Assembly (NCBI GenBank): GCA_014859305.1
Contig: JACUUM010000004.1
Location: 58 to 64,057 of the forward strand
Direction: 5' to 3'
From: Coriobacteriia bacterium
GTDB lineage: Bacteria; Actinomycetota; Coriobacteriia; Anaerosomatales; Kmv31
Length of the DNA stretch: 64,000 nt
Every line of letters starts with the position of its first letter. Position 1 is the first letter of the stretch. The position numbers and the translations under genes are program-made. Below are positions 4,398 to 64,000 of this stretch, piece by piece. The notes beneath the pieces were generated by a model, which made no database searches, was not told where the DNA came from, and saw only the letters and a list, made by a program, of their open reading frames with translations.

Positions 4398-4431
4398 CGA
4401 GCACCGCCGGTGGCGGTGTACGGATGGGGTG

Positions 4432-4460: not shown

Positions 4461-4504
4461 ACCCTTCGCCGCTTCCCGGGCTCGAGCCGGGAGGCAGGCG
4501 CCAC

Positions 4505-4579: not shown

Positions 4580-4590
4580 TGGATGACAGA

Positions 4591-5342: not shown

Positions 5343-5384
5343 CGGGGGCCGAGCGGCGACGGTGCGGGTCCCGAGCAGCGACCC

Positions 5385-10469: not shown

Positions 10470-10477
10470 GGTATCCG

Positions 10478-14684: not shown

Positions 14685-15178
14685 GCACGCTCGTGGGACA
14701 GACGCTCTTCTGGGGCCTGGCAGCGGTGGCGCTGACCGGCGCGGCGACGGTCGTGCTCACCCGGGACGTGATGCGGCTCGTGCTCGGCCTGGGCGCCTTC
14801 CTGCTCGCCGTGGCGGGGTACTTCCTGCTGTACGGCGCCGCGTTCCTCGCCGTCGCGCAGGTCTTCCTCTACGTGGGGGGCGTGCTCGTGCTCGTGCTGT
14901 TCGCGATCATGCTGCTGCACCGCACCGAGAAGGGCACCCCGGACCTGGACAACCGGCACGACGTCGGTTCCGCGATGGTCGCCGTCGCACTCTTCGTCCT
15001 GCTGGTCACGTCGCTGCAGGGTTCGCTCCCGTCGGGGGCGGCCGCCGCGGGGGCCGGGATCGAGGCGGTGGGCGACCGGCTGCTCGGCGCCCTGTTGCCG
15101 CACTTCGAGCTCGTCGGCGCCTTGCTGCTCGCGGCACTCGTGGCGGTGCTCTCTATCGTCGGAGGTGAGCGGCGGTGA
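14681..15178 (+). CDS. nuoJ: NADH-quinone oxidoreductase subunit J
   Basis: GTGA overlap with the nuoI stop, SD GAGGAGGGAG upstream. ND6-like TM protein (FLAVAQVFLYVGGVLVLVLFAIML). Confidence 0.85.
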   Translation: MSTLVGQTLFWGLAAVALTGAATVVLTRDVMRLVLGLGAFLLAVAGYFLLYGAAFLAVAQVFLYVGGVLVLVLFAIMLLHRTEKGTPDLDNRHDVGSAMVAVALFVLLVTSLQGSLPSGAAAAGAGIEAVGDRLLGALLPHFELVGALLLAALVAVLSIVGGERR

Positions 15179-15486
15179 ACGTGCTCGTCGTATGTGCCGC
15201 GCTGTTCTGCCTGGGGCTCTACGGCGTGCTCGTGAGGCGCGACGTGATCGGCGTGCTCGCCAGCGTCGAGGTCATGCTGGGCGCGGCCAGCGTGCAGCTG
15301 ATCGCGTCGGCGATGACGGCCGCCTCCTCGGTGGCCGGTCCCGATCCCGCCACCGCCGAGGCCCTGGGCCTGCTCGTGCTGGTGCTCGCCGCGGCCGAAG
15401 CCGCGGTGGGCCTCGCGCTGCTCGTCAGCGTCGTGAAGCGGACCGGCAGGGGCCGCGTGGACGAACTCGTCGAGGTGGAGGGGTAG
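15175..15486 (+). CDS. nuoK: NADH-quinone oxidoreductase subunit K
   Basis: GTGA overlap. 103 aa with 3 TM helices, ND4L-like (GLYGVLVRRDVIGVLASVEVML, AAAEAAVGLALLV). Confidence 0.88.
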   Translation: MNVLVVCAALFCLGLYGVLVRRDVIGVLASVEVMLGAASVQLIASAMTAASSVAGPDPATAEALGLLVLVLAAAEAAVGLALLVSVVKRTGRGRVDELVEVEG

Positions 15487-15487
15487 G

Positions 15488-17368: not shown

Positions 17369-17372
17369 GGCC

Positions 17373-18824
17373 GTGCTGAGCGCAGTCGTTCTCGTACCGC
17401 TCGCCGGCGCGGTCCTCGTGGCGCTGGCCGGCAGGGGTTCCGCCGGCCTGGCGCGCGTGCTCGCACTGGCGTCGTCGCTGGCCGCGATGGCGGTCACGGG
17501 CGTCGCGCTGGCGGGCATGTCCGGCGCGCAGGGCCTCGTGGAGCGGCTGCCGGCCGGAGGCGAGGGCGCGACCTGGTGGGTGCTCTCGCTGGACGGCCTG
17601 GCAGCGCCGCTGGTCGCGCTGACGGCCTTCCTCGGCGTGATCTCGATCCTCGCGTCGTGGCGGATCGAGCGCTCGCCCGCGGCCCACCTCGCGCTGCTGC
17701 TCGCCCTGCAAGCGGCGGTGGCCGGCGTCTTCCTCGCCGCGCACGTCCTGCTCTTCTACGTGTTCTGGGAGGCCGTGCTGATCCCGATGTACTTCCTGAT
17801 CGGGCTTTGGGGACACGAGGACCGGCGCCACGCCGCCATGAAGTTCTTCATCTACACCTTCGCCGGCAGCGCGCTGATGCTCGTCGGACTGATGATGGTC
17901 GCGTTCTCCTCGGCGAGCCTGGAGTTCGTCCCGGGCTTCGGGCTGACGGCCGGAGGCATGGCCGACGAGATGCGTGCCACCGTGTTCTGGCTGCTCGCGG
18001 CGGGCTTCCTCGTGAAGATCCCGGTGATGGGACTCCATACGTGGCTCCCTGACGCCCACGTCGAGGCGCCTACCGCCGGCTCGATCATGCTCGCGGGCGT
18101 GCTGCTGAAGATGGGCGGGTACGGGATGATCCGCCTCGCGATGCCCGTGGCGGGCGAGGCCTTCGCCTCGGCACAGCCGGTGCTCGTGGCGCTGGGGATC
18201 GGGGGGATCATCTACGGGGCGCTCGTCGCGCTGGCGCAGAGCGACCTGAAGCGGCTCGTCGCCTACTCTTCCGTCTCGCACATGGGCTTCGTCGTGCTCG
18301 CGCTCGGCGTGGGGACGCCTCTCGCGCTGGGCGCGGCGATGCTCGTCATGGTCAGCCACGGGCTCGTGGCCGGCATGCTCTTCCTCCTGGTGGGTCTGCT
18401 GTACGACCGCACGCACACCCGGGAGATGGACCGCTTCGGCGGGCTCGGGCGAACCCTTCCCGGCTGGGCGACAGCCTTCACGTTCGCGGCGCTCGCCAGC
18501 CTGGGCCTGCCGGGCCTCTCAGGGTTCCCGGGAGAGCTCGTCACGGTGCTCGAGACCTTCGGCTCGATCGGCTGGTGGGCGGCCGTCGCCGCCGCGGGCG
18601 TCGTTCTGGCGGCCGCATACAACCTCGTCGCGGTCCGCCGCGTCAACCACGGGCCCGTCGCACAGGAATGGGCGGGCACCTCGGACCTGCGGGCGGGGGA
18701 GTGGGCCGCCGTCGCGCCGCTCGCGGCGGGGATCGTGGCGCTCGGGGTCTGGCCCGCCCTGGTCGTGGATGCCGCTGGGCCCGTGGTTCGGGCCCTGGCG
18801 GCGACGATCGGGGGTGGCTCGTGA
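17373..18824 (+). CDS. nuoM: NADH-quinone oxidoreductase subunit M
   Basis: 483 aa: FWEAVLIPMYFLIGLWG, HTWLPDAHVEAPTAGSIMLAGVLLKMGGYG. Confidence 0.92.
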   Translation: MLSAVVLVPLAGAVLVALAGRGSAGLARVLALASSLAAMAVTGVALAGMSGAQGLVERLPAGGEGATWWVLSLDGLAAPLVALTAFLGVISILASWRIERSPAAHLALLLALQAAVAGVFLAAHVLLFYVFWEAVLIPMYFLIGLWGHEDRRHAAMKFFIYTFAGSALMLVGLMMVAFSSASLEFVPGFGLTAGGMADEMRATVFWLLAAGFLVKIPVMGLHTWLPDAHVEAPTAGSIMLAGVLLKMGGYGMIRLAMPVAGEAFASAQPVLVALGIGGIIYGALVALAQSDLKRLVAYSSVSHMGFVVLALGVGTPLALGAAMLVMVSHGLVAGMLFLLVGLLYDRTHTREMDRFGGLGRTLPGWATAFTFAALASLGLPGLSGFPGELVTVLETFGSIGWWAAVAAAGVVLAAAYNLVAVRRVNHGPVAQEWAGTSDLRAGEWAAVAPLAAGIVALGVWPALVVDAAGPVVRALAATIGGGS

Positions 18825-20290
18825 GCGACTGGATGGTCCTGCTGCCCACCGGGCTGGTCCTGGCGGGCGCCGTCCTGGGTCTGACGCTGGACGCCGGGGA
18901 GCGCCGGCGCGCCGCCCTGGTCGTGATCGCGGCCGGCCTCGCCGCCGGCGCGACGGCGGCCTTCGTCCTGGCCGCCCGCGACACCGCGGTGCTGGGCTTC
19001 GACGCGTTCGGGTTCGTGCCGGCGCTATGGATGATCGCGGGGCTGGTCCACGCCCTGGCCGCTGTGGCCGTCCTGGGGGGCTACCGCGCGCTCAGCGCGG
19101 CGCCCAACGGGGGGCAGATGGCCGCCCTCGCGGCTCTGTCCGCGGCCGCCGCGGGCCTCCTGCCCGGCGTCGTCGACATAGTCGCGCTCGTCATACTGCT
19201 CGAGGCGGTCGCGCTCACCGGCTACGCGCTCGTGGCGGGCGCGCGCGGCCGGCGCTCCGACGAGGCCGCCATGAAGTACTTCATCCAGGGGGCGGTCGCC
19301 ACGGGGCTGCTGGTCTACGCGCTGGCCGTGCTGTACGGGACGCTGGGCAGCGGGCTGTCGTTGCCGGACATCGCGCGCGCGGTCGGCCCGGGCGACCGGG
19401 CGGCGCTCACCGCGTTCGCGCTCCTGCTCGCGGCCTTCGCGTTCAAGTTGGGCGCGTTCCCGTTCCACTCCTGGGCCCCCGACGCGTACGAGACCGCCCC
19501 GCCTTCGATGGCCTCGTTCCTGGCGAGCGGTCCGAAGCTCGCCGTGCTCGCGATCGCGTTCATCATGTTCCCGGTGGTCTTCTCCGGGGAACCGTTCGAC
19601 GGGCCGGCGCTGTGGATGCTGGGGGCGCTCGCCGTGGCGTCGATCGTCTTCGGGAACCTGGGGGGGCTGAAGCAGACGTCGTACGCGCGGATGCTCGCGT
19701 ACTCCGGCATCGCGCAGGTGGGCTACGCGCTCGTCGGGCTCACCGTGATGCACCTCGTGGGGTTGCCGAACTCGGTCCCGGTGTACCTGCTCGGCTCGAT
19801 GTACGCGGTCGCGGCCGCCGGCGCCTTCCTCGCGGCCCAGGCGTTCAGGGCGTCGGACCCCGCTTGGGACGGGACGATCGCCGGCCTGGCCGGCGCCGGC
19901 AAGCGCCGTCCGCTTCTGGCCGCCGCGGTCACGGTGTGCCTGCTCTCCCTCACGGGGATCCCGCTCACCGGCGGTTTCTGGGGCAAGTTCCTCGTCTTCG
20001 GGGGTGCCGTGACGACGGGCACGGCCTGGCTGGCCGTCGTCGGCGTCTTGGGGTCCGTCGTCTCGTTCGGGTACTACGGCGGCGCCATCCGCGCGATGTA
20101 CCTCGACGAGCCGCGCGTCCCCCCCGTGCCCGCCGCCGGGGCGGGCGAGGCCACCGCCGAGGGTGCTGTCGCGGACAGGACGGCCGAGGCGGCCGTGGTG
20201 GCGGTGGCTCTCGTCGTGGTCGCCGCAGGCGTGCTGCCGCTGTTCGACGGGCTGCGCTTCTTCACGCGATTCCTCGCGCTGCCGTTCTAG
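18821..20290 (+). CDS. nuoN: NADH-quinone oxidoreductase subunit N
   Basis: GTGA overlap with the nuoM stop. 489 aa: KYFIQGAVATG, FKLGAFPFHSWAPDAYETAP. The track ORF start at 18575 is a spurious extension. Confidence 0.9.
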   Translation: MSDWMVLLPTGLVLAGAVLGLTLDAGERRRAALVVIAAGLAAGATAAFVLAARDTAVLGFDAFGFVPALWMIAGLVHALAAVAVLGGYRALSAAPNGGQMAALAALSAAAAGLLPGVVDIVALVILLEAVALTGYALVAGARGRRSDEAAMKYFIQGAVATGLLVYALAVLYGTLGSGLSLPDIARAVGPGDRAALTAFALLLAAFAFKLGAFPFHSWAPDAYETAPPSMASFLASGPKLAVLAIAFIMFPVVFSGEPFDGPALWMLGALAVASIVFGNLGGLKQTSYARMLAYSGIAQVGYALVGLTVMHLVGLPNSVPVYLLGSMYAVAAAGAFLAAQAFRASDPAWDGTIAGLAGAGKRRPLLAAAVTVCLLSLTGIPLTGGFWGKFLVFGGAVTTGTAWLAVVGVLGSVVSFGYYGGAIRAMYLDEPRVPPVPAAGAGEATAEGAVADRTAEAAVVAVALVVVAAGVLPLFDGLRFFTRFLALPF

Positions 20291-32053: not shown

Positions 32054-32667
32054 TGCTGTACGTGCTCACGGGAGGCGCGCGTTCGGGCAAGTCCTCCGCC
32101 GCCGAGGGGCTGGCCGCCGAGCTCGGAGGCGCCGTCGTCGTCGCCGCGGCGGGGTCGGCCGCGGGCGACGAGGAGATGGCGGCACGGATCGAGGCGCATC
32201 GTGAGGCGCGCCCGAAGGCATGGCGCGTTCGGGAGGTCCGGGACGCGGGCGCCTGGACGCCAGGGGCGCGACCAGGGGAGACGGTCGTGCTGGAGTGCCT
32301 CGGCACGCTGCTGGGCCGGTTGATGGACGAGACGGCGGCGCGCGGGGCGCTCGCCGGCCCGTGGGACGCCGAGGCGCTGCCCGAGGAGTTCGCCGACGAG
32401 GTCGAGGCGCGGATGAACGCGGTCACCGAGGCGTGCGCCGCCGCCGCCGGTTCACGCGACCGCCACCTGGTCGTGGTGACGAACGAGGTGGGTGACGGAG
32501 TCGTGCCGGCGCACGCGTCGGGTCGGCTCTTCCGCGACGTGCTCGGGCGCGCCAACCGGCGGCTGGTCGAGGCGGCGGACGCCGCTTGGTTGGTGGTAGC
32601 CGGGCGTTGCCTGGACCTGAAGAGCCTGCCGGCGGTCGCAGCGCCGACGGCGCGAGAGGAGACGTAG
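32053..32667 (+). CDS. cobU: adenosylcobinamide kinase / adenosylcobinamide-phosphate guanylyltransferase
   Basis: GTG overlaps the rluB TAG by 1 nt. Motifs: P-loop LTGGARSGKSSAAE, VVVTNEVGDGVVP. It heads a cobUTSC cluster. The track ORF start at 30829 is spurious. Confidence 0.8.
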   Translation: MLYVLTGGARSGKSSAAEGLAAELGGAVVVAAAGSAAGDEEMAARIEAHREARPKAWRVREVRDAGAWTPGARPGETVVLECLGTLLGRLMDETAARGALAGPWDAEALPEEFADEVEARMNAVTEACAAAAGSRDRHLVVVTNEVGDGVVPAHASGRLFRDVLGRANRRLVEAADAAWLVVAGRCLDLKSLPAVAAPTAREET

Positions 32668-33741
32668 GTGACGAGGGACCGACGACGAGTGCTGGCCGAG
32701 GCGTGCGCGGCCGTCCGGCCGGCCGACACCGGGGTCGAGGAGTCCGCCTGGGCGCGGCTCGACTCGCTCACCAAGCCCCCGAGGAGCCTCGGCCGGTTGG
32801 AGGAGCTCGCGGCGCGGCTCTCGGCCATCACGGGGAGCGTGCCGCCGGTCCTCGGCGAGAAGGCCGTGCTCGTGGCCGCCGCGGACCACGGCGTGGTCGC
32901 AAGGGGGGTGGCCGCGTACCCGCAGGAGGTCACGCGCCAGATGACCGCGAACTTCGCCGCCGGCGGGGCGGCGATCAACGCGATCGCGCGTAGCGTGGGG
33001 GCTCGTCTGGTCGTCGCCGACGTTGGGGTGCGGGCCGGCGACGTCCCCGAAGGCGTGCGCGACCTGCGGGTCGCCGCCGGCACGCGCGACATGACGGCCG
33101 GCCCCGCGATGAGCGGGGACGAGGCGCTCGCAGCGATCTGCGCCGGGATCGGCCTGGCACGGGAGCTCGTCGACGACGGCGTAGGCGTGCTGGGGCTGGG
33201 CGAGATGGGGATCGGCAACACGACCGCGGCGGCCGCGCTGGTGGCGGCGTTCGCGGGTGCGGGGCCGGAGCACGTGGCGGGGCCGGGGACGGGCTTGGAC
33301 GCCGAGGGAGTGGCCCGCAAGGCCGCGGTGGTGCGCGCCGCGCTGGAGCGCAACGGCGCCGACGGCCGCGACCCGCTGGCGACGCTGGCGGGCGTGGGCG
33401 GCCTGGAGATAGCGACGTTGGCCGGAGCCGCCATCGGCGCCGCCGGACGCGGGTGCGTGACCGTGGCCGATGGCTTCGTCTCGACGGCCGCCGTGGTGGC
33501 CGCCGCGGCGATGTGTCCCGCGCTACGCGAGCGAGTCGTGGCGTCGCACCTCTCGCCGGAGCCCGGTCACGCCGTGGCGCTGCGCTGGCTCGCGCTCGAG
33601 CCGCTGCTGGACCTGCGAATGCGCCTCGGCGAGGGCACCGGGGCGGCACTGGCCATGCCGGCGATCGAGGCCGCCGCGGCCGTCCTGCGCGACATGGCGA
33701 GCTTCGAGGAGGCAGGCGTGTCCGGTGGGGGCGTAGGGTGA
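32668..33741 (+). CDS. cobT: nicotinate-nucleotide--dimethylbenzimidazole phosphoribosyltransferase
   Basis: LTKPPRSLGRLEEL, AADHGV, GEMGIGNTTAAAAL. Confidence 0.9.
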   Translation: MTRDRRRVLAEACAAVRPADTGVEESAWARLDSLTKPPRSLGRLEELAARLSAITGSVPPVLGEKAVLVAAADHGVVARGVAAYPQEVTRQMTANFAAGGAAINAIARSVGARLVVADVGVRAGDVPEGVRDLRVAAGTRDMTAGPAMSGDEALAAICAGIGLARELVDDGVGVLGLGEMGIGNTTAAAALVAAFAGAGPEHVAGPGTGLDAEGVARKAAVVRAALERNGADGRDPLATLAGVGGLEIATLAGAAIGAAGRGCVTVADGFVSTAAVVAAAAMCPALRERVVASHLSPEPGHAVALRWLALEPLLDLRMRLGEGTGAALAMPAIEAAAAVLRDMASFEEAGVSGGGVG

Positions 33742-34487
33742 CCGCGGCCCGAGGAGCGCTCGCCGCGCTGGCGCTGCTGACCCGGGTCCCGGTGCCCCGG
33801 CATCCCGCGCCGGGCCCGGGCGCAGTGGGCTGGTTCGGGCCCGTCGGTCTGCTCCTGGGGTCCTCGGCCGCGCTGCCGGCTTGGCTCGCGCTTCGATGGG
33901 GCTGGCGCGGTCAGGCCTCGATGATCGCCGCGGTGCTCGTCGTGGCGTGGTGGGCGTGGGGCACGCGGATGCTGCACTGGGACGGGCTGGCCGACGCGGC
34001 GGACGCCGCGTGGGGGGCGGCCGATCCGGCATCCCGCCTCGCCGTGATGGCCGACACCCGCACGGGCGCGTTCGGCGCCACCGCCGTGGCACTCGTCGCG
34101 CTCGGACAGGCATCCGCGATCGGTGCGTCGCTGACGGCGGGCCGCGTGTGGCCGCTCGTGCTCGCTCCCGTGCTCGGGCGGAGCGCGGCCTCGCTCCTGG
34201 TCTGGGGGCTTCGCCCGGCGCGCTCCGGGGGGCTCGGCGCCGCGCTCGCCGGCCCCGCGCCCGTCGGAGGCGTGCTCGCCTCGTCGGCCGCCGTCGCCGT
34301 CGCCGTGGCGCTCGTGCGGCTGGAGGAGCCCTCCGCCGCGGCGGCCGCGGCGTTCACGGGGCTGGCCGTCGCGATAGCCGTGCCCTTCGTCGTGGCGCGG
34401 CCGTTCCGGGGATACACCGGCGACGTGCTCGGAGCCTCGGTCCTGCTTGTCGAGACGGCGGCGTTGATGATCGCGGGGATCCTCTAG
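33738..34487 (+). CDS. cobS: adenosylcobinamide-GDP ribazoletransferase (cobalamin synthase)
   Basis: GTGA overlap with cobT. Polytopic, with HWDGLADAADA and DTRTGAFG motifs. Confidence 0.82.
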   Translation: MTAARGALAALALLTRVPVPRHPAPGPGAVGWFGPVGLLLGSSAALPAWLALRWGWRGQASMIAAVLVVAWWAWGTRMLHWDGLADAADAAWGAADPASRLAVMADTRTGAFGATAVALVALGQASAIGASLTAGRVWPLVLAPVLGRSAASLLVWGLRPARSGGLGAALAGPAPVGGVLASSAAVAVAVALVRLEEPSAAAAAAFTGLAVAIAVPFVVARPFRGYTGDVLGASVLLVETAALMIAGIL

Positions 34488-34490
34488 GCG

Positions 34491-35132
34491 ATGGGAGGCG
34501 ACGGGGATACGACGACGCGGCGGGTGCTGATCGCGCGGCATCCCGAGACCGTCGCGAACCGCGAGGGGCGCTACATCGCCGAGGCGGATTCGCCCTACAC
34601 GCCCCGAGGGGCGCGGCAGGCCGCCTCCCTGGCCCGCTGCATCGGGGCCTTCCGCCCCGACGCGGTGCTCGCCTCGCCCGCGCGGCGGGCCTTGGAGCCG
34701 GCGAGCTCAGGCGCGGCCGCGGCGGGCGCACGCCTGTTGGTCGAGGAGCGGCTCCGCGAGGTGGGCTGGGGGGACGCCGAGGGGCTCACCTACGCGGAGG
34801 TGCGGCGCGCCGGCGTACCGATGGACTACCTCGGCGGCCCGGATGCGGGGGAGATCGCCGGCGGCGGCGAGAGCTGGGCCTCGTTCACCCGTCGCATCCG
34901 GGAGGCCGCGGGACTCATCGCGGAGGCGGGGGAGAGGGTCGCCGTCGTCACCCACGGGGGTGTGGTCCGCGCCCTGCTGGTGACCTGGCTCGGGTTGCCG
35001 GCGGAAGCGGCATGGCGCTTCGCGATCCGTCCGGCGTCGGTCACCGTCGTCAAGCTCGCCGACGGGCACGGGGCGCTGGAGGTCTTCGGCATGACGCCCG
35101 GTACGTGCGTCCGCACGCCGGGGAGGGACTGA
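34491..35132 (+). CDS. cobC: histidine phosphatase family protein, probable alpha-ribazole phosphatase
   Basis: RHPET (RHG-type) motif and THGGVVRALL. It is the last gene of the cobUTS cluster. Confidence 0.7.
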   Translation: MGGDGDTTTRRVLIARHPETVANREGRYIAEADSPYTPRGARQAASLARCIGAFRPDAVLASPARRALEPASSGAAAAGARLLVEERLREVGWGDAEGLTYAEVRRAGVPMDYLGGPDAGEIAGGGESWASFTRRIREAAGLIAEAGERVAVVTHGGVVRALLVTWLGLPAEAAWRFAIRPASVTVVKLADGHGALEVFGMTPGTCVRTPGRD

Positions 35133-35253
35133 CCCCCTCGCTCCGCCCGCCTGGGCGTCCCGCCCCTGAGACCGCTTGCCACCGCGCGCCCCCCTGCGGG
35201 AGAATCCTTCGCAACCTCCGGCCGCGGCTCGCGGTGAGCCGTGCGCCGACGGA

Positions 35254-36381
35254 ATGGGAGGCGCCTTGGGAAGCGGAAGCAGCGCGTGGGAGCGGATCGT
35301 GCGCGACGACCTGGCCGGTCTCGTGCCGTACGCGCCCGGCCTGCGTGCGAGCGAGGTGCGGGAGCGCTGCGGCAGGCCGCGAGTGCTGAAGCTGTCCAGC
35401 AACGAGAGCCCGCATCCGCCCTTCCCGGCCGCGCTCCGGGCGATCCGGGCCGTGGCCCCCCGGGTCAACCGCTATCCGGACGGGTCGGCGCGAGCACTCC
35501 GGGGCGCCCTCGCCGAGCGGCTCGGCGTGCCGGCGGAGAACCTCGTCGTCGCCAACGGCAGCAACGAGCTGCTCGTGCTCATCGCGCAGGCCGTCCTTCG
35601 CCCCGGCGACGAGGTCGTGTTCGCCTGGCCCAGCTTCGTCGTCTACCCCATGGCCTGCGAGATGTTCGGCGCGACGGCCGTGCGCGTGCCGCTCGCCGAC
35701 GACACCCACGACGTGGAGGCGATGGCCGGCGCGATCACGGAACGGACGCGCGTCGTGTTCCTGTGCAACCCCAACAACCCGACGGGCACGGTGTACCGCC
35801 GCGAGGCGCTCGAGCGCTTCCTTCGCCGCGCGCCCGAGCACGTGCTGGTCGTGGCCGACGAGGCGTACTTCGAGTACGTGACGGACCCCGGCTACCCCGA
35901 CTCGCTGGCCTTCTTCGACGGGGATCGCCCGCTGGCCGTGCTGCGCACGTTCTCGAAGATGTACTCGCTGGCCGGCTTGCGCGTCGGCTACGGCGCCCTG
36001 CCGGCGCCGCTGGCCGACGCCGTGCACCGCCTGCGCGCCCCGTTCAACGTCAACACCGTCGCCCAGGCGGCGGCGTACCATTCCCTCGGCGACGAGGCCG
36101 AGGTGAGGCGCCGGCGCGCCGAGAACCAGGAGCAGAAGACCTACCTCTATTCGGCCTTCGACCGGCTCGGGGTCTCCTACGCGCCTTCGGAGGCCAACTT
36201 CGTGTACTTCCACACGTCCAGGCCGGCCGAGGTGTTCGAGGCACTCCTCGAGGAGGGCGTCATCGTCAGGGGATTCGGGACCGCGCCCGCGCTGCGCATG
36301 ACCGTGGGCACCCCCGCGGAAACCCTGGATGCCGTCCAGGCCCTCGAGGCGGCCGCGGAGAGGCTGCGCGGGCTGGCCTGA
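35254..36381 (+). CDS. hisC: histidinol-phosphate / aromatic aminotransferase (class II PLP)
   Basis: LSSNESP, RYPDGSA, NPNNPTG, and FSKMYSLAGLRVGY (PLP lysine). It lies between the cob and aro clusters. Confidence 0.78.
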   Translation: MGGALGSGSSAWERIVRDDLAGLVPYAPGLRASEVRERCGRPRVLKLSSNESPHPPFPAALRAIRAVAPRVNRYPDGSARALRGALAERLGVPAENLVVANGSNELLVLIAQAVLRPGDEVVFAWPSFVVYPMACEMFGATAVRVPLADDTHDVEAMAGAITERTRVVFLCNPNNPTGTVYRREALERFLRRAPEHVLVVADEAYFEYVTDPGYPDSLAFFDGDRPLAVLRTFSKMYSLAGLRVGYGALPAPLADAVHRLRAPFNVNTVAQAAAYHSLGDEAEVRRRRAENQEQKTYLYSAFDRLGVSYAPSEANFVYFHTSRPAEVFEALLEEGVIVRGFGTAPALRMTVGTPAETLDAVQALEAAAERLRGLA

Positions 36382-47189: not shown

Positions 47190-47315
47190 TGCGCTTTCTT
47201 CAGGGCGGGGTGGAAGTCCCCACCGGCGGTGAGAGCCCGCGAGCCCCGATCGAAGGGGCAGACCCGGTGGAATCCCGGGGCCGACGGTGACAGTCCGGAT
47301 GGGAGAAGGAAGGTC
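47190..47315 (+). promoter_or_regulatory. FMN riboswitch (RFN element)
   Basis: The conserved core is present: CTTCAGGGCGGGGTGGAAGTCCCCACCGGCGGTGAGAGCCCGCGAGC ... GACCCGGTGGAATCCCGGGGCCGACGGTGACAGTCCGGATGGGAGAAGGAAGG. P1 pairs CTTTCTTC (47194-47201) with GAAGGAAG (47305-47312). It lies directly upstream of ribD. Confidence 0.93.
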
Positions 47316-51227: not shown

Positions 51228-51968
51228 ATGCTGGAGGACGATACCGTCCCGGCCGGCCCCCCCGACCAGGACGAGGGCACGACCGAGGAGCGACAGGAGC
51301 GTTCCCGCTTCGCCGTGCTCGACGTCTTCGGCCTGAAGCTGGAGGTCAGCAACCCGCGCCTGGCCGAGCTGCTCACCATGGACGCCAAGGACGCCCTCGG
51401 CGCCGACGTGCGCGAGTTCGTCGGCGCCGCGCCCCAGGTCCACACCGGGGCGGGAACGGAGGCCGTGCCGGAGGTCGTCCTCTCGGTCCCGAGAGCCCGA
51501 GACGAGCAGGAGGCGCGGCTGAGGCGGGAGTTCCGCGCGCGGGTAGAGGCCGACGGGGCTGCGATCGGCTTCGCGACGAGCGGCGAGGGGATGTGGAAGT
51601 CCGCCTCGGGTCTGTCGATCCTCACGCGCGCCATCGAGCGGCCGGTCTCCCTCGCGGCCGCGAGCCACTACGTCTCGGAGGTCGCGAACCGGCGGGAGAC
51701 CGTCGCGGGCCCGGACTCCACGGCGCTGTTCATCGTCGACGGCCAGCAGACCGCCGACGTCTTCAAGGTCGCCATCCGGCAACGGCGCCTGTACGACCTC
51801 ATGCGGACGATCGCCGTCGAGAACCTCGAAGAGATCCGGGCGCTGGTGGAGCACGGGACGATCGACCACGCCCAGGCGGTCGTGCTGCTCGTCCCGATCG
51901 CCAACATCGACGTGGGCGAGGTCCTGTCGATCATCCGCTCGGCGGCTCCGGAGGCCGAAGCCGGCTGA
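51228..51968 (+). CDS. hypothetical protein (246 aa), no family recognised
   Basis: SD GGAAGGGAG lies before ATG 51228. The frame is GC3-rich, with an acidic N-terminus and an ordered-looking C-terminal half. The track ORF start at 50940 is probably an extension. Confidence 0.6.
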   Translation: MLEDDTVPAGPPDQDEGTTEERQERSRFAVLDVFGLKLEVSNPRLAELLTMDAKDALGADVREFVGAAPQVHTGAGTEAVPEVVLSVPRARDEQEARLRREFRARVEADGAAIGFATSGEGMWKSASGLSILTRAIERPVSLAAASHYVSEVANRRETVAGPDSTALFIVDGQQTADVFKVAIRQRRLYDLMRTIAVENLEEIRALVEHGTIDHAQAVVLLVPIANIDVGEVLSIIRSAAPEAEAG

Positions 51969-54203: not shown

Positions 54204-55256
54204 TTGGCCCGCCTCTTCGTCGCGATGAGCGGAGGCGTCGACAGCTCGGTTGCGGCCGCCCTGCTCGTGGAGGAGGGCCACGAGGTCGTGGGCGTGACCA
54301 TGCGGCTGCTCGCGGCACCCGACGCCGAGAGCGGCTGCTGCTCGGCCGCCGCCGCCCGGGACGCGAAGAGGGTGTGCCACGCCCTGGGCATCCCGCACTA
54401 CACGATGGACTTCCGCGACACGTTCTCGCGCGAGGTCGCCGCGCCCTTCGCCGAGGCCTACGCCGTCGGGAGGACGCCGAACCCCTGTGTCGCCTGCAAC
54501 GACCGGGTCAAGTTCGACGAGCTGCTGCGGCGGTGTCTCGCCGCGGGGGCGGAAGGGCTCGCGACGGGGCACTACGCGCGCATCGTAGAGGATCCCGCGG
54601 GGAAGCGCTGGCTGGTGCGCGGCGCCGACGCCGGCAAGGACCAGAGCTACTTCCTGTATCGCATGACCTCCGAGCACCTCGCGCTCGCACGCTTCCCCGT
54701 CGGAGGCCTGACGAAGGACCGGGTGCGCCGGATCGCAGCCGAACGGGCGCTCCCCACCGCCGAGAAGCCCGACAGCCAGGAGATCTGCTTCGTGCCCGAC
54801 GACGACTACGGGGCGTTCGTGGCCCAGGCGTATCCCGGTGCGCTGACCCCGGGTCCCGTGCTCGATACGGCTGGCCGCGTCGTGGGCGAGCACGGCGGGC
54901 TCGCGCGCTACACGGTCGGGCAGCGCCGTGGGCTCGGCGGCGGGGCCGACCGGAGGCGTTACGTGGTCGCCCTGCTGCCCGAACGCAACGCCGTCGTCGT
55001 CGGCGAGGCGCGCGAGTTGGAGGCGCGCGAGCTGGTGGCCGACGACGTCGTCTGGCGCGCGGGGGCCGCCGAGCGAGGGGGGGTGGCGATCCGCCACCGC
55101 GCCCGCCCGGTCCCCGGGCTGATCCGGCTCGGCGAGGACGGGACTCTGCGGATCGCGCTCGACGAGCCGGTGGTCGGCGCGGCACCAGGGCAGTCCGTCG
55201 TATGCTACGCGGGAGAGCGCGTGCTCGGCGGCGGGGTGCTGAGGGAGGCGCGATGA
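54204..55256 (+). CDS. mnmA: tRNA 2-thiouridine(34) synthase
   Basis: Probable TTG start. Motifs: VAMSGGVDSSVAA PP-loop, TPNPCVACN, DQSYFLY. Confidence 0.88.
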   Translation: MARLFVAMSGGVDSSVAAALLVEEGHEVVGVTMRLLAAPDAESGCCSAAAARDAKRVCHALGIPHYTMDFRDTFSREVAAPFAEAYAVGRTPNPCVACNDRVKFDELLRRCLAAGAEGLATGHYARIVEDPAGKRWLVRGADAGKDQSYFLYRMTSEHLALARFPVGGLTKDRVRRIAAERALPTAEKPDSQEICFVPDDDYGAFVAQAYPGALTPGPVLDTAGRVVGEHGGLARYTVGQRRGLGGGADRRRYVVALLPERNAVVVGEARELEARELVADDVVWRAGAAERGGVAIRHRARPVPGLIRLGEDGTLRIALDEPVVGAAPGQSVVCYAGERVLGGGVLREAR

Positions 55257-56068
55257 GGGTCGACCTGCACGTGCACACGTCGCTGTGCCGACACGCGGAG
55301 GGCACCGCCGCGGAGATGGCCGAGGCCGCTCGCGCCGCGGGCCTGGATGTCGTGGCGATCACCGACCACCTGCCGCTTCCCCCGGGCTTCGACCCCGGCT
55401 ACGCCATGGGCGCCGACGAGCTCGAGGCCTACGTCTCCGAGGTGCTGGTCGCCGCCGAGGGCATGCGCTCCGCCGGCGGACCCGAGGTCCTCCTCGGCAT
55501 CGAGGCCGACTGGCTGCCGGGGGCCGAGGAGCGCGTCGGCGACGCCGTCGCGGCGTACCCGTTCGACGTCGTCCTGGGGTCGGTCCATTTCCTCGACGGC
55601 TGGGCCTTCGACGACCCGCGCCTGGCGGGCGAGTGGGACCGCCGCGACGCGGGGGATGTGTGGCGCGCCTACTTCGGCCGGCTCTGCGCGGCGGCCCGCA
55701 GCGGTCTCTTCGACGCCATGGCGCATCCCGACCTGGTCAAGAAGTTCGGGCATCGCCCGGGTTTCGACGCGCTGCCGCTGTACGAGGAAGCCGCGTCCGT
55801 CTTCGCGGGCGCGGGCGTGGCGGTGGAGGTGAACACTGCCGGGCTGCGCAAGCCGGTGGGCGAGGCGTACCCCTCGCTCGACTTCCTCGCCGCCTGCCGC
55901 AGAGCCGGAGTGAGCGTGGTGACCGGATCCGACGCGCACCACCCCCTGGAGGTCGGCTTCCGGCTGGACGCGGCCGAGGAGCTGCTGCGCGCGGCCGGGT
56001 ACGAGAGCATCGCCGTCGTACGTGGACGCCGGATCGAGGAGATCCCGATGGGGGTGGCACGCCGATGA
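55253..56068 (+). CDS. PHP-family histidinol-phosphatase-like hydrolase
   Basis: ATGA overlap. Motifs: VDLHVHT, ITDH, GIEADW, GSVHFL, AHPD, GSDAH. Confidence 0.78.
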   Translation: MRVDLHVHTSLCRHAEGTAAEMAEAARAAGLDVVAITDHLPLPPGFDPGYAMGADELEAYVSEVLVAAEGMRSAGGPEVLLGIEADWLPGAEERVGDAVAAYPFDVVLGSVHFLDGWAFDDPRLAGEWDRRDAGDVWRAYFGRLCAAARSGLFDAMAHPDLVKKFGHRPGFDALPLYEEAASVFAGAGVAVEVNTAGLRKPVGEAYPSLDFLAACRRAGVSVVTGSDAHHPLEVGFRLDAAEELLRAAGYESIAVVRGRRIEEIPMGVARR

Positions 56069-57156
56069 GCGGTGCTACGATCGCCGATGTCGTGGGGGTG
56101 CTCGAGGAGCGGTTCCCCTCGCAGTGGACGGAGCCGTGGGACGCGGTCGGGCTGCTGGCGGGGAGGGCGGACGCGCAGGTCACGGGCGTGCTGGTGACGC
56201 TCGACCCGACGGTCGACGCCGTCGAGCGCGCGGCCTCCGCGGGCGCGAACCTGCTCGTGACGCATCACCCGGCCTACCTGGGGCCCGGGCCTCGACCGAC
56301 CGAGACCGCGAGCCCGCTTCTGCCCGCGTTGCAGTCCGGTGTCGCGCTCGCCTGCGCGCACACCAACCTCGACCGCTCGCCTGCCGGCGCGGAGGCGCTG
56401 CCGGCGGTCCTCGGGCTGCGGGTGCTGCGGCCGCTGGAGGACGGGCTCCAGCCCGTCGACGTCGTGACCGTGTTCGTCCCCCCGGAGGCCGAGGACGCAG
56501 TCGTGGACTCCATGGCGGCGGCAGGCGCGGGGCGCATCGGCCTCTACGGGGGCTGCGCCTTCTGCGGCAGCGGCATCGGCCGCTACACGCCGCTGCGCGG
56601 CTCCTCCCCGTCGGTCGGGACGCACGGGCGGGAGGAGCGGGTGGCCGAGTCGCGCGTGGAGATGGTGGCCCCGCGCGGAAGCGGTCCGGGCGTAGCCTCG
56701 GCGGCGGCAGCGGCCCACCCCTACGACGAGCCGCTCATCATGGTGCAGGAGTCCTCTACCGCCCGCGGAGCCGCGCGGATGGGACGTCTGTGCGCCACCG
56801 GCGGCCGGACCCTGCAGGAGCTCGTCTTCGACGTCGCATGCAGGCTGCAGGTGGCGCCGCGCGCGCTCGGCGAGCCCGAGCGGCTCGTGGAGACCGTCGC
56901 CGTGGCGAACGGGTCCGCGGGCTCGCTCCTGGGCGCGGCGCTGTCCTCGAGCGCCGACGCGTTCCTGGTGGGCGAGCTGAGGTATCATGACGCGTTGGAC
57001 GCCGTGGCCGCGGGTCTGTGCGTGATCGAGGTCGGCCACGACGCCAGCGAGTGGCCGATGGTGACCGTGCTCGCCGAGGCGGTGCGCGCGACTCCGTCGC
57101 TCGGGACCACGGCGGTCCACGTGGACGCGCCGGGAACGCTGTACTGGTCGCCGTGA
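56065..57156 (+). CDS. Nif3-like dinuclear metal centre protein (YqfO type with PII-like insert)
   Basis: ATGA overlap. Motifs: DAVGLL, LLVTHHPA, AHTNLD, central insert VVTVFVPPEAEDAVVDSMAAAGAG, C-terminal GELRYHD...EVGHDASE. Confidence 0.82.
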   Translation: MSGATIADVVGVLEERFPSQWTEPWDAVGLLAGRADAQVTGVLVTLDPTVDAVERAASAGANLLVTHHPAYLGPGPRPTETASPLLPALQSGVALACAHTNLDRSPAGAEALPAVLGLRVLRPLEDGLQPVDVVTVFVPPEAEDAVVDSMAAAGAGRIGLYGGCAFCGSGIGRYTPLRGSSPSVGTHGREERVAESRVEMVAPRGSGPGVASAAAAAHPYDEPLIMVQESSTARGAARMGRLCATGGRTLQELVFDVACRLQVAPRALGEPERLVETVAVANGSAGSLLGAALSSSADAFLVGELRYHDALDAVAAGLCVIEVGHDASEWPMVTVLAEAVRATPSLGTTAVHVDAPGTLYWSP

Positions 57157-57911
57157 GCCGCGAGGGGAGCGGGGAGAACCGCGTGGAGCGATCCGAGACG
57201 CTCGTCAGGCTGCAGGAGGCGGACCTCGTCGAGGTCCGGACCCGCAAGCGCCTGGACGAGCTGCCCGAGAAGCGCGCCATACTCGATGCGCGCAAGAAGC
57301 GCCGCGAGGTCGAGCAGCTCCGCGGGCGAGCCGAGGAGTTCCTCGGCGGGCTGCGCAGCGAGCTCTCCCGCTTGGAGGATGAAGCCTCAGGGGTCGAGGC
57401 CAAGATCGGCTCCGAGCAGGCCAGGGTGATGTCGGGTGAGGTCGTCAATCCCAAAGAGGTGCAGAACATCACGCGCGAGATGGACGCGCTGAAGCGGCGC
57501 AAGGACAAGCTGGAGATCGAGGAGCTCCGGGTGATGGAGAAGGTCGAGAAGGCCGAGGGGCAGCTGGCGCGCATCGACGGCGCGCTGACGGCGCTGGACG
57601 CGCGCGAGGGCGAGCTCACGCAGGCCTTCACCTCCAAGGGGGGCGAGTTGCAGAACGACATCGACCGCGCGCACCGGGAGCGCGAGGCGCTCGCGGCGGC
57701 GCTCGACCCGGAGACGCTCGACGCCTACGAGGAGGCGCGCGCCTCCAAGGGCGGGATAGGAGTGGGCGTGCTCGAGGGCGACACCTGCAGCGCGTGCCGC
57801 GTCCAGCTGCCCGCGGAGAAGCTCCACTCCCTGCGTTCGGGCGAGGACGTCGCTCGCTGCCCCAACTGCCGCCGCCTGCTCGTCGTGCGGCGCGGGGGGA
57901 GCTCCGCGTGA
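57153..57911 (+). CDS. zinc-ribbon/coiled-coil protein (DUF164 / COG1579 family)
   Basis: GTGA overlap. A long coiled coil is followed by CSACRVQLP...CPNCRRLL. It is the conserved partner of Nif3 genes. Confidence 0.78.
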   Translation: MSREGSGENRVERSETLVRLQEADLVEVRTRKRLDELPEKRAILDARKKRREVEQLRGRAEEFLGGLRSELSRLEDEASGVEAKIGSEQARVMSGEVVNPKEVQNITREMDALKRRKDKLEIEELRVMEKVEKAEGQLARIDGALTALDAREGELTQAFTSKGGELQNDIDRAHREREALAAALDPETLDAYEEARASKGGIGVGVLEGDTCSACRVQLPAEKLHSLRSGEDVARCPNCRRLLVVRRGGSSA

Positions 57912-58714
57912 GCCGTCACACGCTGTTCACGGACGGGGCGGCCAGGGGCAACCCCGGACCGGCGGCCTCCGCGTACCTGCTGCGGGACCCGGAAGGAAGC
58001 ATCGTCGCCTCCGCGGGGAGGTTCCTCGGCGTATCCACGAACAACGCCGCGGAGTACCAGGCCCTCATCGACGGCCTCGAGGCCGCGCTCGCCCGCGGGG
58101 TTCGCGCCTTGGACGTCCGCTCCGACAGCGAGCTGATGGTCCGGCAGCTGTCCGGCGAGTACCGCGTGAGGAACGAAGGGTTGCGCCCGCTGTACGAACG
58201 GGCGACCGAGCTGCTCGCCGCGATCGAGGAAACGAGCGTCGTCCACGTCCGGCGTGAGGACAACGCCGAGGCGGACGCGCTCGCCAACCGCGCCATCGGC
58301 GCCCGGGCCGAAGCCGCGGACATGAGACGGGAGCCGCCGGGCGGGTCGTGGGACCTGACGGTGCGCGGCCACTTCGACGCGGCGCACGCTCTCAGGGGCT
58401 ACGAAGGGGAGTGCCGCGAGCTCCACGGCCACACGTGGGACGTGGAGGCGACGGTGCGTGGCGAGGCGCTCGACGACATCGGGATCGTGTACGACTTCAA
58501 GACGCTCAAGGACGACCTCGCGGCGGTGCTGGATCCCTTCGACCACGCGTACCTCAACGACGTGCCGCCCTTCGACGGCCTCAACGCCACGGCCGAGAAC
58601 CTCGCGCGCGTGATCTTCGAGGCGCTGCAGGCACGCGTGGCTCCCACCGTGACGGTGACCGAGGTCGCCGTGTGGGAGTCGCCGGTGGCTCGCATCGCGT
58701 ACCGGAAGGCGTAG
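57908..58714 (+). CDS. fusion protein: RNase HI (N-terminal) plus 6-carboxytetrahydropterin synthase QueD / PTPS-family domain (C-terminal)
   Basis: GTGA overlap. RNase H part at aa 1-~135: LFTDGAARGNPGPAA, NNAAEYQALI, RSDSELMV, REDNAEADALAN. QueD part at aa ~148-268: HFDAAHAL, ECRELHGHTWDVE (CxxxHGH), YDFKTLK, DHAYLND, VWESP. Confidence 0.85.
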   Translation: MSRHTLFTDGAARGNPGPAASAYLLRDPEGSIVASAGRFLGVSTNNAAEYQALIDGLEAALARGVRALDVRSDSELMVRQLSGEYRVRNEGLRPLYERATELLAAIEETSVVHVRREDNAEADALANRAIGARAEAADMRREPPGGSWDLTVRGHFDAAHALRGYEGECRELHGHTWDVEATVRGEALDDIGIVYDFKTLKDDLAAVLDPFDHAYLNDVPPFDGLNATAENLARVIFEALQARVAPTVTVTEVAVWESPVARIAYRKA

Positions 58715-59124
58715 GGAACCGGATCGCCCGCGGGCGCGGTGACCCGTGGTCAGCGTCCGCGGATGCGGTCCGGAGGTGGGTCCCGAGGAACGAGAGTGTC
58801 CCAAGAAACCTCGCCCGCGGTGTCCTTACTCCCCAGCTTCCCGTTTCACGCCTTTGAGGTACCCTCCGCCCAGGAAGACTCGCGTCTGCCTTTCGGTCGG
58901 GCCCCTCGCCGGCAGCTACTGGTACGCTGGCTTTCGAGACTCGCTCAGTCCGGCTTCTTGGGACGAGCCATACGCTACACCCGGCCCGCACGGGCGGTCA
59001 ATGGCTTTCGTCGAGATTGCGGACACTTCTGACCACCGGTCGTGGATGTATGCCGAACGGGCGCCCGCGGGGGTTGAGCGGACGGAACGCCGTTTCGGTG
59101 CCCGCGGTGCCGGATCGGGAGGTC

Positions 59125-61971: not shown

Positions 61972-62388
61972 ATGGGCCGCAACCCCGCCATCAAACGCTA
62001 CCGGACGCACACGCGCGGTCAGTCCGCCGACCTCTTCGGCGACAAGCGCGGGCGCCTGCCGGTCGTCATGGAGCTGCTGCGCAGCCCTTGGGTCGTGCGC
62101 GGCTCCGAGTTGCCCGGCTGCGACGGCGCGGCGCCGGGCAAGCGCGTCGAGCGCGAGGTCGAGGTCGAATGGGACGGCGAGAGGCGGGTGCCGGCCATGT
62201 TCTCCTGGGGAGGACGGCGATACCGCGTCGACGCGCTCGCGCAGGCCTGGGCGGTCGAGCGCGCGTGGTGGGACCCTCGGGAGCGCGTGAGCCGCCGCTG
62301 CTTCCGCGTGCTCGCGCGCGGCGGCGTCTACGACCTCGCCTACGACCGCCTCACGAACCGCTGGCTGCTCGTGGGCATCGTCGACTAG
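61972..62388 (+). CDS. hypothetical 138-aa protein with C-terminal WW-motif domain (ImuB C-terminal-like?), co-transcribed with dnaE2
   Basis: GC3-rich ORF between the LexA-box promoter and the polymerase gene. The C-terminal FSWGGRRYRVDALAQAWAVERAWWDPRERVSRRCFRVLARGGVYDLAYDRLTNRWLLVGIVD looks like a folded domain. The start codon is uncertain. Confidence 0.65.
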   Translation: MGRNPAIKRYRTHTRGQSADLFGDKRGRLPVVMELLRSPWVVRGSELPGCDGAAPGKRVEREVEVEWDGERRVPAMFSWGGRRYRVDALAQAWAVERAWWDPRERVSRRCFRVLARGGVYDLAYDRLTNRWLLVGIVD

Positions 62389-62408
62389 GGCGGGACTCGG
62401 GACCGCCG

Positions 62409-64000
62409 ATGGCCTTCGTCCACCTGCACACGCACTCGCGCTTCTCGTTCGCCGACGGGGCGGCAGACCTCGACGACCTCGTCACGGCCGCCGCCGGACG
62501 CGGCATGCCGGCACTTGCGCTCACGGACCATCAGGGCCTCTACGGCGCGATCCGCTTCTACCGCGCCGCGCTCACCGCCGGGGTGAGGCCGATCGTCGGC
62601 GCGGAGGTGGTGGTGGAGGCCGCCGGCATCCGTGGCCACGAGGGAGACCTCCCTCCCGAGGAGCGTCTGCCGCTCTCCGCCCCCGTGGGCTTCGGGCGCG
62701 CCTCGGGCGCCGGGTTCCACCTCACCCTGCTCGCCGAGGACGTCACGGGCTACCGCAACCTGTGCCGCCTGCTCTCCCGCATGCACCTGCGTCGCGGGCC
62801 GGACAGCTTCGGCGCGCACTCGTCGGTCGTGACGCTGGCGGAGCTCGCGCGCTGTTCGGAGGGCATGATCGCGCTCTCCGGCTGTCAGCGGGGCGAGGCG
62901 GGTGCGGCGGTGCTGGCGCGACGCCCGTGGCGTGCGCGCGCGGCTCTGGAGCGGCTCGCGCGCTGCTTCGCGCCGGGGAGCTTCTACGTCGAGCTCGTGC
63001 ATGCGATGGCGCCGCAGGCGCCGCGCTACGTCGCCGGGCTGGCGGAGCTCGCCGGGGTGCTCGGCCTGCCGGTGGTGGCGACCAACGACGTCCACTACGT
63101 GCGCTCCGAGGAGTTCCGGCTCGCCGACGTGCTCGCAGCCGCCGGCACCGGAGTCCCGCTGCCCGGGCCCTACGACCGGCCCAACGGCGAGCTGTACCTC
63201 AAGAGCGGCAGCGAGATGCGGCGCCTGTTCGCCGGCGTGCCGGGCGCGTGCGACGCGACGCTCGAGATCGCCGCGCGCTGCGAGTTGGACCTGGGCCTGG
63301 GCGGGTTCCACTTCCCGAGCGTGGAGGTCCCGCCCGGCGAGACGGCGTACTCGGCGCTGTCCAAGGCCGCCTGGCGCGGACTGGAGGAGAGGTACCGGCC
63401 GCTCACGCCCGAGGCCGTCGCGCGGCTGCAACGGGAGCTGGGTGCCATCTGCGACCTGGGCTTCGCGGAGTACTTCCTCGTGGTCAAGGACGTGGTCGAC
63501 TTCGCCCGTTCCCGCGGCATCCGATACTCGGGGCGCGGCAGCGCCGGCGACTCGATCGTGAGCTACGTGCTGGGCGTGACGGACGCGGACCCCATCGAGC
63601 ACGACCTGCTGTTCGAGCGTTTCCTCAACCCCGCGCGGCGCCAGATGCCCGACATCGACGTGGACTTCGACGCGGCGCGCCGTGACGAGGTGATCGCCTA
63701 CATCTACCGCCGCTTCGGCTCGGAGCACGTCGCGATGGTCGCCACCGTGAACACGATGACGGCGCGCTCGGCGGTGCGCTGCGCGGCCCGCGCGCTGGGA
63801 CACCCTCCGGCCGAGGTGGACGAGCTCTCGCGGTACCTGCCCTGGGTGTCGGCATCCAAGGTGCGCGAGGTGCTCGCCGCCTACCCCGAGTGCGCGAACC
63901 ACCCGCTGCGCGACGAGCGGCGCCACTCGATGCTGCTGGACATCGCCGAGCGGCTGGACGCCTGCCCGATGCACCTGGGCACGCACCTGGGCGGCTTCCT
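62409..64000 (+). CDS. dnaE2: error-prone DNA polymerase III alpha-type subunit (DnaE2-like), 3' end beyond the window
   Basis: This ORF is not in the track because it runs off the window; I translated it by hand. Motifs: MAFVHLHTHSRFSFADGA (PHP), ALTDHQGLYG, HLTLLAEDVTGYRNLCRL, ATNDVHY, GFAEYFLVVKDVV, GRGSAGDSIVSYVLGVTDADP, LLFERFLNPARRQMPDIDVDF. It lies downstream of the LexA box. Confidence 0.85.
   Translation, partial: MAFVHLHTHSRFSFADGAADLDDLVTAAAGRGMPALALTDHQGLYGAIRFYRAALTAGVRPIVGAEVVVEAAGIRGHEGDLPPEERLPLSAPVGFGRASGAGFHLTLLAEDVTGYRNLCRLLSRMHLRRGPDSFGAHSSVVTLAELARCSEGMIALSGCQRGEAGAAVLARRPWRARAALERLARCFAPGSFYVELVHAMAPQAPRYVAGLAELAGVLGLPVVATNDVHYVRSEEFRLADVLAAAGTGVPLPGPYDRPNGELYLKSGSEMRRLFAGVPGACDATLEIAARCELDLGLGGFHFPSVEVPPGETAYSALSKAAWRGLEERYRPLTPEAVARLQRELGAICDLGFAEYFLVVKDVVDFARSRGIRYSGRGSAGDSIVSYVLGVTDADPIEHDLLFERFLNPARRQMPDIDVDFDAARRDEVIAYIYRRFGSEHVAMVATVNTMTARSAVRCAARALGHPPAEVDELSRYLPWVSASKVREVLAAYPECANHPLRDERRHSMLLDIAERLDACPMHLGTHLGGF

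Follow-up and report, generated by a model that had tools for sequence, protein, structure and literature searches.

Described RNase HI fusions and the rnhA::queD locus

The closest described counterpart of the protein considered here is RnhC of the Actinomycetales (Rv2228c, MSMEG_4305; NCBIfam model NF005567), in which an RNase HI is joined to a CobC-like acid phosphatase. The RNase HI and acid phosphatase/CobC domains of RnhC are autonomous and are reported to be functionally disassociated, are connected by a linker of 24 to 162 aa, and give phenotypes that map to one domain only; the fusion was concluded to have been fixed by drift (PMC7466739; bioRxiv 10.1101/2022.11.09.515703). In a 64,000-nt stretch of the genome of a Coriobacteriia bacterium (contig JACUUM010000004.1), referred to here in its entirety as the window, a single 268-aa open reading frame (ORF) on the + strand (57908..58714; rnhA::queD) joins an RNase HI to QueD, an enzyme of the PTPS family. 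This enzyme makes 6-carboxy-tetrahydropterin from 7,8-dihydroneopterin triphosphate and thereby catalyzes the first committed step toward preQ0 and queuosine. We found no paper describing an RNase H-QueD fusion in the open-access literature; the architecture is already present in public databases, but under the name QueD only. We consider it most likely that the locus encodes two independent enzymes that share an operon, not a new machine, and we put at roughly 0.7 the probability that the product is a bifunctional protein with two autonomous enzymes on a flexible tether, formed by fusion of the last two genes of the operon.

RnhC and the window protein have in common the RNase HI subtype (114.9 bits to NF005567; Foldseek target template modeling [TM] score of 0.94 to 3hst, the N-terminal domain of Rv2228c), a place directly after nif3 and COG1579, and an architecture that runs from an N-terminal RNase HI through a variable, disordered linker to a C-terminal small-molecule enzyme; by analogy, the window protein may also parallel RnhC in having autonomous modules. 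The two differ in that the C-terminal domain is a His_Phos_1 phosphatase in RnhC but a T-fold PTPS/QueD in the window protein, and in that the partner of the latter is a former downstream gene that is still unfused in most relatives. When the two halves are compared separately, the best matches to the N-terminal domain are the single-domain archaeal and metagenomic RNases HI of Halobacterium (4e19), LC11 (3u3g), and Sulfolobus tokodaii (2ehg), with 45% identity, a TM score of 0.95, and a common DEDD site, but none of these has a PTPS partner; they stand alone or are extended differently at the N terminus. The C-terminal domain resembles E. coli QueD (4ntk, 4ntm, 3qn0; PTPS-I of COG0720), with which its CxxxHGH motif, zinc histidines, Cys-Asp-His residues, and pterin-binding Glu all align (TM score of ~0.9), but identity is only ~33%, and the window protein has an N-terminal RNase H and does not cluster with queC, queE, folE, or any other que gene. 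Nearest of all are the unfused rnhA-queD pairs of other Coriobacteriia (e.g., loci L089, L056, and L057), which lie in the same operon and have orthologous domains of 65 to 76% identity, but in which a stop after a conserved ...LF tail and a separate queD start yield two proteins where the window makes one.

One reading frame encodes an RNase HI and a complete QueD

The ORF, which starts with GTG and overlaps the stop of the upstream gene by 4 nt, truly joins the two enzymes, as had been noted in an initial annotation made from the sequence alone, and profile searches of Pfam and NCBIfam agree with that description. The type-1 RNase H domain occupies aa 8 to 129 (57929..58294, + strand), where RVT_3 (PF13456) matches with an E value of 1e-25 and 90.3 bits against a cutoff of 21.6; RNase_H (PF00075) matches as well (E value of 1e-9; 38.8 bits against a cutoff of 25.8). 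The QueD/PTPS-I domain follows at aa 150 to 267 (58355..58708, + strand), where the match to PTPS (PF01242; E value of 1e-39) covers profile positions 2 to 120 of 121, i.e., a full-length domain, and the 102.5 bits obtained with the QueD equivalog TIGR03367 exceed its cutoff of 89.25. The model of the bifunctional RNase H/acid phosphatase, NF005567, is matched over positions 8 to 141 of its 378 only and stays far below its cutoff of 326 bits. Sequence and fold searches of the PDB place the N-terminal domain nearest to Halobacterium RNase H1 (TM score of 0.95 to 4e19), LC11-RNase H1, and the N-terminal domain of Rv2228c, thereby assigning it to the RnhC/Halobacterium/LC11 subtype, and place the C-terminal domain nearest to E. 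coli QueD and other PTPS proteins; no solved chain in these searches spans RNase H and PTPS together.

Both active sites are intact. In an alignment of 121 fused homologues, reaching down to ~40% identity, RNase H residues D9, E49, D73, N119, and D123 are invariant, as are QueD residues H155, H160, C169, H173, G174, H175, D212, H213, N217, W256, and E257. We take D9, E49, D73, and D123 to be the equivalents of E. coli D10, E48, D70, and D134, on the basis of the established motifs TDG, AE, DS, and (N)xxxD, and we take from established structural work on QueD that H160, H173, and H175 bind zinc, that C169, D212, and H213 are catalytic, and that E257 binds the pterin. The FEAAH, CGRLHGH, LDHHYLND, and KE segments of E. 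coli QueD line up with H160, C169, H173, H175, D212, H213, and E257. All motifs quoted in the initial annotation are found in the ORF, and the loss of the catalytic Cys, His, or Glu that it had named as grounds for doubt is not seen in this alignment, nor is any loss of the acidic residues of RNase H. The QueD domain is the better conserved of the two, with a mean pairwise identity of 66% versus 56% for RNase H.

Members of COG0720 carry diagnostic motifs, which are CxxxHGH in PTPS-I/QueD, CxxxxxHGH in PTPS-II, and ExxHGH in PTPS-III (PMC5041015). The window protein reads C169-R-E-L-H173-G-H175 and fits PTPS-I only. Assignment to PTPS-II, the biopterin type, was rejected because the Cys lies 4 residues, not 6, ahead of the first His; PTPS-III, the folate FolB bypass, was likewise rejected because the residue three before H173 is R170, a position occupied by R, K, A, Q, or S in the family and never by E.

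The fused state arose repeatedly from adjacent genes

The 120 top database matches are all two-domain proteins of Coriobacteriia metagenome-assembled genomes (MAGs), which NCBI and JGI name "QueD" only. A scan of species-representative genomes returned at least 539 relatives; almost all of the best 80 belong to the Coriobacteriia (Anaerosomatales, Raoultibacter, Eggerthellales UBA lineages, and one Slackia MAG), joined by Ca. Geothermocultor of the class Ca. Aquicultoria. The same fusion therefore exists in other genomes, as the initial annotation had suggested looking for, but it is not universal. The closest relatives of the QueD domain are hundreds of stand-alone QueDs of 121 to 125 aa from Coriobacteriales MAGs, and after clustering at 50%, ~15 of the top 150 representatives have two domains.

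Fused and unfused states were scored on 79 loci by per-domain tblastn with manual checks; at 72% GC, alternative frames are often open. The two domains are fused at 33 loci, including the window, are separated by an in-frame stop at 17, and lie in different frames at 28. At the one remaining locus (L079, 3678-6363), a 601-aa PAS/histidine-kinase gene (4200-6005) splits an intact rnhA (150 aa) from queD (121 aa), providing a natural "fission" control. One locus scored as fused, from a long-read MAG (L050, 5941-6900), in fact holds separate genes: two compensating frameshifts shift rnhA-queD from frame 0 to 2 and back to 0 while similarity remains continuous, which is typical of assembly indels and calls for caution when the fused state is scored from MAGs. 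With this correction, ~32 of the 79 loci are fused and ~47 have separate ORFs. Independent gene calls on a 581-kb contig give the same arrangement, with 46 nt between the genes for an RNase H of 151 aa and a PTPS of 123 aa in the same operon.

Where the genes are separate, the C terminus of RNase H is conserved as ...VGD...(Q)G(S/T)LF[GE], followed by the stop, and queD begins with (M/V)YELTVK.HFDAAH at -1 to 22 nt beyond the end of RNase H. Many fused linkers still read ...SLF[DE]...G(M/V)YELTVK, which is the old RNase H tail followed by the old QueD start, and this points to loss of the stop codon and subsequent read-through of the former spacer. A neighbor-joining tree of the concatenated domains shows that the fused state is polyphyletic, with one large clade of gut and termite Coriobacteriales that is entirely fused and other fused tips scattered among unfused environmental lineages, such that fusion or fission must have taken place several times.

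These observations contradict the view, put forward in the initial annotation, that the partner domain of RNase H had been swapped relative to mycobacterial RnhC. Most relatives keep queD as a gene of its own immediately 3' of a stand-alone rnhA, and the linkers preserve the old tail and start; together, these features argue for repeated fusion of neighboring genes and not for replacement of a CobC domain. The window also contains a cobU-cobT-cobS cluster (32260-35129) with a free-standing His_Phos_1 gene (34488-35129; CobC-like, of the alpha-ribazole phosphatase type), so that the domain that mycobacteria have fused to RNase HI is a separate gene here. A class I/II aminotransferase gene also follows the CobC-like gene in this region (32260-36378).

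Because most close relatives have separate genes, and because at least one MAG locus (L050) shows compensating frameshifts of the kind produced by long-read indel errors, the single ORF of the window might itself be an assembly or sequencing artefact, in which an indel merged two genes. The junction makes this extremely improbable. The window sequence has neither a stop nor a frameshift at the domain junction, the very defects that the initial annotation had named as potentially fatal, and no frame of the junction retains a remnant of the ...LF-stop tail, a stop, or a (M/V)YELTVK start. Moreover, the junction motif SW[DE]L[TS]V, which reads SWDLTV in the window, recurs in fused relatives that were assembled independently (ENA, Logan, NCBI, and JGI; proteins P0001-P0003, P0005, P0007, P0008, and P0036). 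The closest protein relatives (P0001-P0003 and P0005) are fused in the same way as the window, with P0001 and P0002 retaining a ...SLF/ALF vestige, and locus L004 is the fused sister of the window on the domain tree. The fusion in the window is genuine and belongs to a fused sub-clade.

Some long database matches that align in several stretches were considered as larger fusions and rejected, since those scanned repeat the RVT_3 domain in tandem. Such proteins in the representative library (P0126-P0145; 313 to 931 aa) contain this RNase H domain two or three times in a row, in some cases after an N-terminal SAP domain, and score high against the RNase H half of the query.

Two predicted folds on a flexible tether

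An AlphaFold2 (AF2) monomer model has a predicted local distance difference test (pLDDT) score of 94 in the domains (~97 in the RNase H domain) and a predicted TM (pTM) score of 0.56, and pLDDT falls below 50 at aa 138 to 144; these values indicate two confident folds on a flexible tether. No confident contact between the domains is predicted. The residues of low confidence lie in the interdomain linker (58295..58354, + strand), which at 16 residues is a shortened form of the low-complexity and unconserved linkers of the family (15 to 151 aa; median of 56). The linker of the window protein contains an internal ATG (M139; nt 58322-58324) that relatives do not keep, and since the former QueD start is also gone, QueD in the sub-clade of the window is presumably made only as a fusion.

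We envisage the N-terminal module as an RnhC-type RNase HI that would cleave the RNA strand of RNA:DNA hybrids such as R-loops and primers and the C-terminal module as a zinc-dependent PTPS-I/QueD. The two genes are the last two in a compact operon with coupled translation, (mnmA)-PHP-nif3-COG1579-rnhA-queD, in which loss of the rnhA stop codon would have extended translation through a short spacer into the adjacent queD cistron. The fusion would then provide strictly equal coexpression and nothing more, with neither activity depending on the other. That rnhA and queD stand unfused, side by side, in most relatives suggests that the enzymes are probably independent. We infer both enzymatic activities, the queuosine role of QueD, and the lack of mechanistic coupling.

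Operon context and alternative roles

The window has a G+C content of 72%, with nearly all real genes on the + strand, and rnhA::queD is the last of five genes, beginning with mnmA, that are chained by four 4-nt start/stop overlaps. A PHP-domain phosphoesterase gene (55253..56068, + strand), the start of which overlaps the mnmA stop, is the first of the four cistrons that follow mnmA; next are nif3 (DUF34/NIF3; 56065..57156, + strand), as supported by Pfam and the gene overlaps, and a COG1579/DUF164 gene (57153..57911, + strand), which encodes a CT398 coiled coil and a C4 zinc ribbon (CT398/Zn_ribbon_9) and is coupled in translation to the fusion gene. Across ~79 related loci of Coriobacteriia and Ca. 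Aquicultoria, the order nif3, COG1579, rnhA, queD is the feature that is conserved. An operon association of COG0327, COG1579, and COG0328 has been published (PMC8469502), and MSMEG_4306 (COG1579) is known from the literature to adjoin MSMEG_4305 (RnhC). The parallel drawn in the initial annotation between the upstream Nif3 and DUF164 genes and the mycobacterial rnhC locus is thus borne out by Pfam and by this association, and the shared order makes the RNase H gene of the window the positional counterpart of rnhC.

Farther upstream of mnmA are an Rrf2-family gene, iscS, and iscU, preceded by a rib operon with a flavin mononucleotide (FMN) riboswitch. The iscS-iscU-mnmA genes beside the fusion locus share a theme of tRNA wobble modification, which is consistent with a queuosine role for queD. 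The remark in the initial annotation that no other que genes lie nearby stands and can be extended: tblastn with E. coli proteins returned no homologue of QueA, Tgt, QueC, QueE, QueF, or FolE in the window or in 84 related loci (~0.96 Mb), and inspection by eye of all high-GC3 ORFs of the window, together with Pfam spot checks, revealed no further que genes. The lone QueC match was to the PP-loop of MnmA and was dismissed.

Three observations weigh against a simple pair of independent, queuosine-related enzymes. The order of rnhA followed by queD, together with its tight spacing, is kept class-wide and into Ca. Aquicultoria, an adjacency that is not predicted by chance and may hint at a functional link. 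The former QueD start is gone in the sub-clade of the window, so QueD is probably available there only as a fusion, and its hexamer must then tolerate six appended RNase H domains. Finally, other que, folE, and tgt genes are missing from the window and the ~0.96 Mb of related loci.

The first of these observations could reflect functional coupling, in which a T-fold QueD hexamer displays up to six RNases HI as a multivalent platform for R-loop or primer removal, or in which binding of a pterin or another GTP-derived metabolite to QueD regulates RNase H; adjacency and repeated fusion would then be products of selection for holding the two proteins together. QueD forms homohexamers whose active sites lie at the subunit interfaces (PMC5699537), and the fused protein should accordingly be hexavalent for RNase H. 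Coupling also accords with the rnhA-queD order at ~79 loci of Coriobacteriia and Ca. Aquicultoria, with a spacing of -1 to 46 nt, with the fixation of the fusion several times independently, and with an influence of the CobC domain of Rv2228c on RNase activity in vitro, as reported in PMC7466739. We nevertheless regard coupling as unlikely, given that the genes are unfused in most lineages and that one lineage tolerates another gene between them, that linkers are long, variable, and disordered, that the model has no confident contact between domains, and that the precedent of RnhC favors independence.

The third observation bears on whether the PTPS domain serves queuosine synthesis at all. 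It might instead catalyze another pterin reaction or work with the co-operonic NIF3 protein, and the idea that DUF34 is a metal insertase would supply a further link, QueD being a zinc enzyme. In favor of such a role are the missing que, folE, and tgt genes, the invariable location of queD in the nif3-COG1579 operon, the catalytic promiscuity and frequent misannotation of COG0720 proteins (PMC5041015), and the ties of DUF34 to metal-dependent partners (PMC8469502). We hold it to be rather unlikely in view of the PTPS-I motif, with R at position -3 and neither of the alternative motifs, and of the score above the curated cutoff of the QueD equivalog model; in addition, que genes are often scattered around bacterial genomes, and the assignment of NIF3 as a GTP cyclohydrolase has been strongly challenged (PMC8469502). 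Two independent enzymes in one operon, of which QueD acts toward queuosine, thus remain our preferred reading. That the class-wide adjacency and repeated fusion signify a real functional link, whereby the QueD hexamer scaffolds or regulates RNase HI or NIF3/DUF34 and COG1579 serve QueD by providing its GTP-derived substrate or zinc, strikes us as quite improbable. If NIF3/DUF34 and COG1579 did act with QueD, this would offer a handle on the function of DUF34/NIF3.

A candidate small RNA convergent with queD

The fusion gene is followed by a 450-nt gap and then by dtxR/feoA, feoB, DUF6504, and dnaE. Within the gap and convergent with queD lies a candidate new structured small RNA (sRNA) gene of ~175 nt (core, 58796..58966, - strand), a conserved, rod-like neighbor for which we claim no functional link to the fusion. 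Searches with blastn and nhmmer recovered the element in ~55 of the 84 related loci and once in the window, and a metagenome motif scan returned 73 stretches, 72 of which have it, ~47 of these at 16 to 166 nt from a convergent queD; loci contain one or two copies (L004-L084 and L091-L163).

The 36 pairs derived from an alignment of 49 sequences form a rod that is closed by a helix of 13 bp, interrupted by large, conserved internal loops, and capped by a GNRA apex; the minimum free energy is -79 kcal/mol (z = -3.5). Strong covariation supports this fold, in that 95.3% of cells are paired versus 24 to 49% when partner columns are slid, and double changes occupy 203 cells versus no more than 73 after sliding; the observed values were reached in none of 500 shuffles. 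The closing helix contains G-U and U-G pairs that never vary, and these place the RNA on the - strand of the window. A promoter (58972..59001, - strand) with TTGACC, an 18-nt spacer, and TAGCGT precedes it, and all 49 aligned copies have the pattern TTGAC-N16-18-TAnnnT in this place, its end lying 5 nt ahead of the alignment's first column and 7 nt ahead of the pair with which the closing helix begins. Hairpin-plus-T-run terminators follow many copies. A generic promoter and terminator scan reported nothing for this sRNA, the actinobacterial TAnnnT being looser than the -10 rule of that scan.

No Rfam 15 family matches the gap or the sRNA at gathering thresholds, at E values of ≤1, or at E values of ≤10, and RNase P and other known RNAs were rejected on these grounds. 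The element resembles 6S RNA in form only, being a rod of ~180 nt whose 5' and 3' ends pair with each other and which has a promoter of its own and a large internal loop; membership in that family was also rejected, there being no 6S match even at E values of ≤10.

Other features of the window

Upstream of the fusion operon, the FMN riboswitch (RF00050; 112.5 bits; 47192-47314) precedes ribD-ribE-ribBA-ribH and is ordinary. Between the rib operon and Rrf2/iscS is a gene (51249-51965) for a conserved protein of ~240 to 263 aa that has no Pfam match and that is syntenic in relatives (L001, 3971-4762; L004, 3239-4030). On the other side of the fusion gene, at 61999-64000, DUF6504 lies directly upstream of a PHP/DNA_pol3_alpha (DnaE-type) gene that is cut by the window end. 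The DUF6504-dnaE pairing is kept in relatives, with a gene of the IMS family (Y-family polymerase, ImuB/DinB-like) nearby in L004 and L089, and the region may be a cassette of the mutasome type.

At 12636-14627, in an apparent nuoA-B-C-D-H...J-K-L-M-N operon (~9180-20260), a GltD-like module consisting of Fer4_20 and Pyr_redox_2 (NAD(P)H-flavin oxidoreductase) forms the N-terminal part of a fusion with a NuoI-like 2x[4Fe-4S] ferredoxin. Inspection of the window translations by eye showed no nuoE, nuoF, or nuoG, and the fusion may offer an 11-subunit complex I an alternative route of electron input.

Implications for the family

The rnhA-queD fusion reveals no new mechanism. It does affect how these genomes are read, as public annotation of the fused gene as "QueD" hides the only recognizable RNase HI in the locus, whereas unfused relatives are annotated as having two genes. 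In this family, nature provides a clean case of repeated fusion through loss of a stop codon, and the old tail, spacer, and start can still be read in the linker. After RnhC, it is also a second, independent case of an actinobacterial RNase HI that gained a C-terminal small-molecule enzyme, which supports regarding fusions of this kind as neutral or as a means of coexpression. Finally, queD can be added to the conserved nif3-COG1579-rnhA neighborhood, a clue that may help in establishing the function of DUF34/NIF3.

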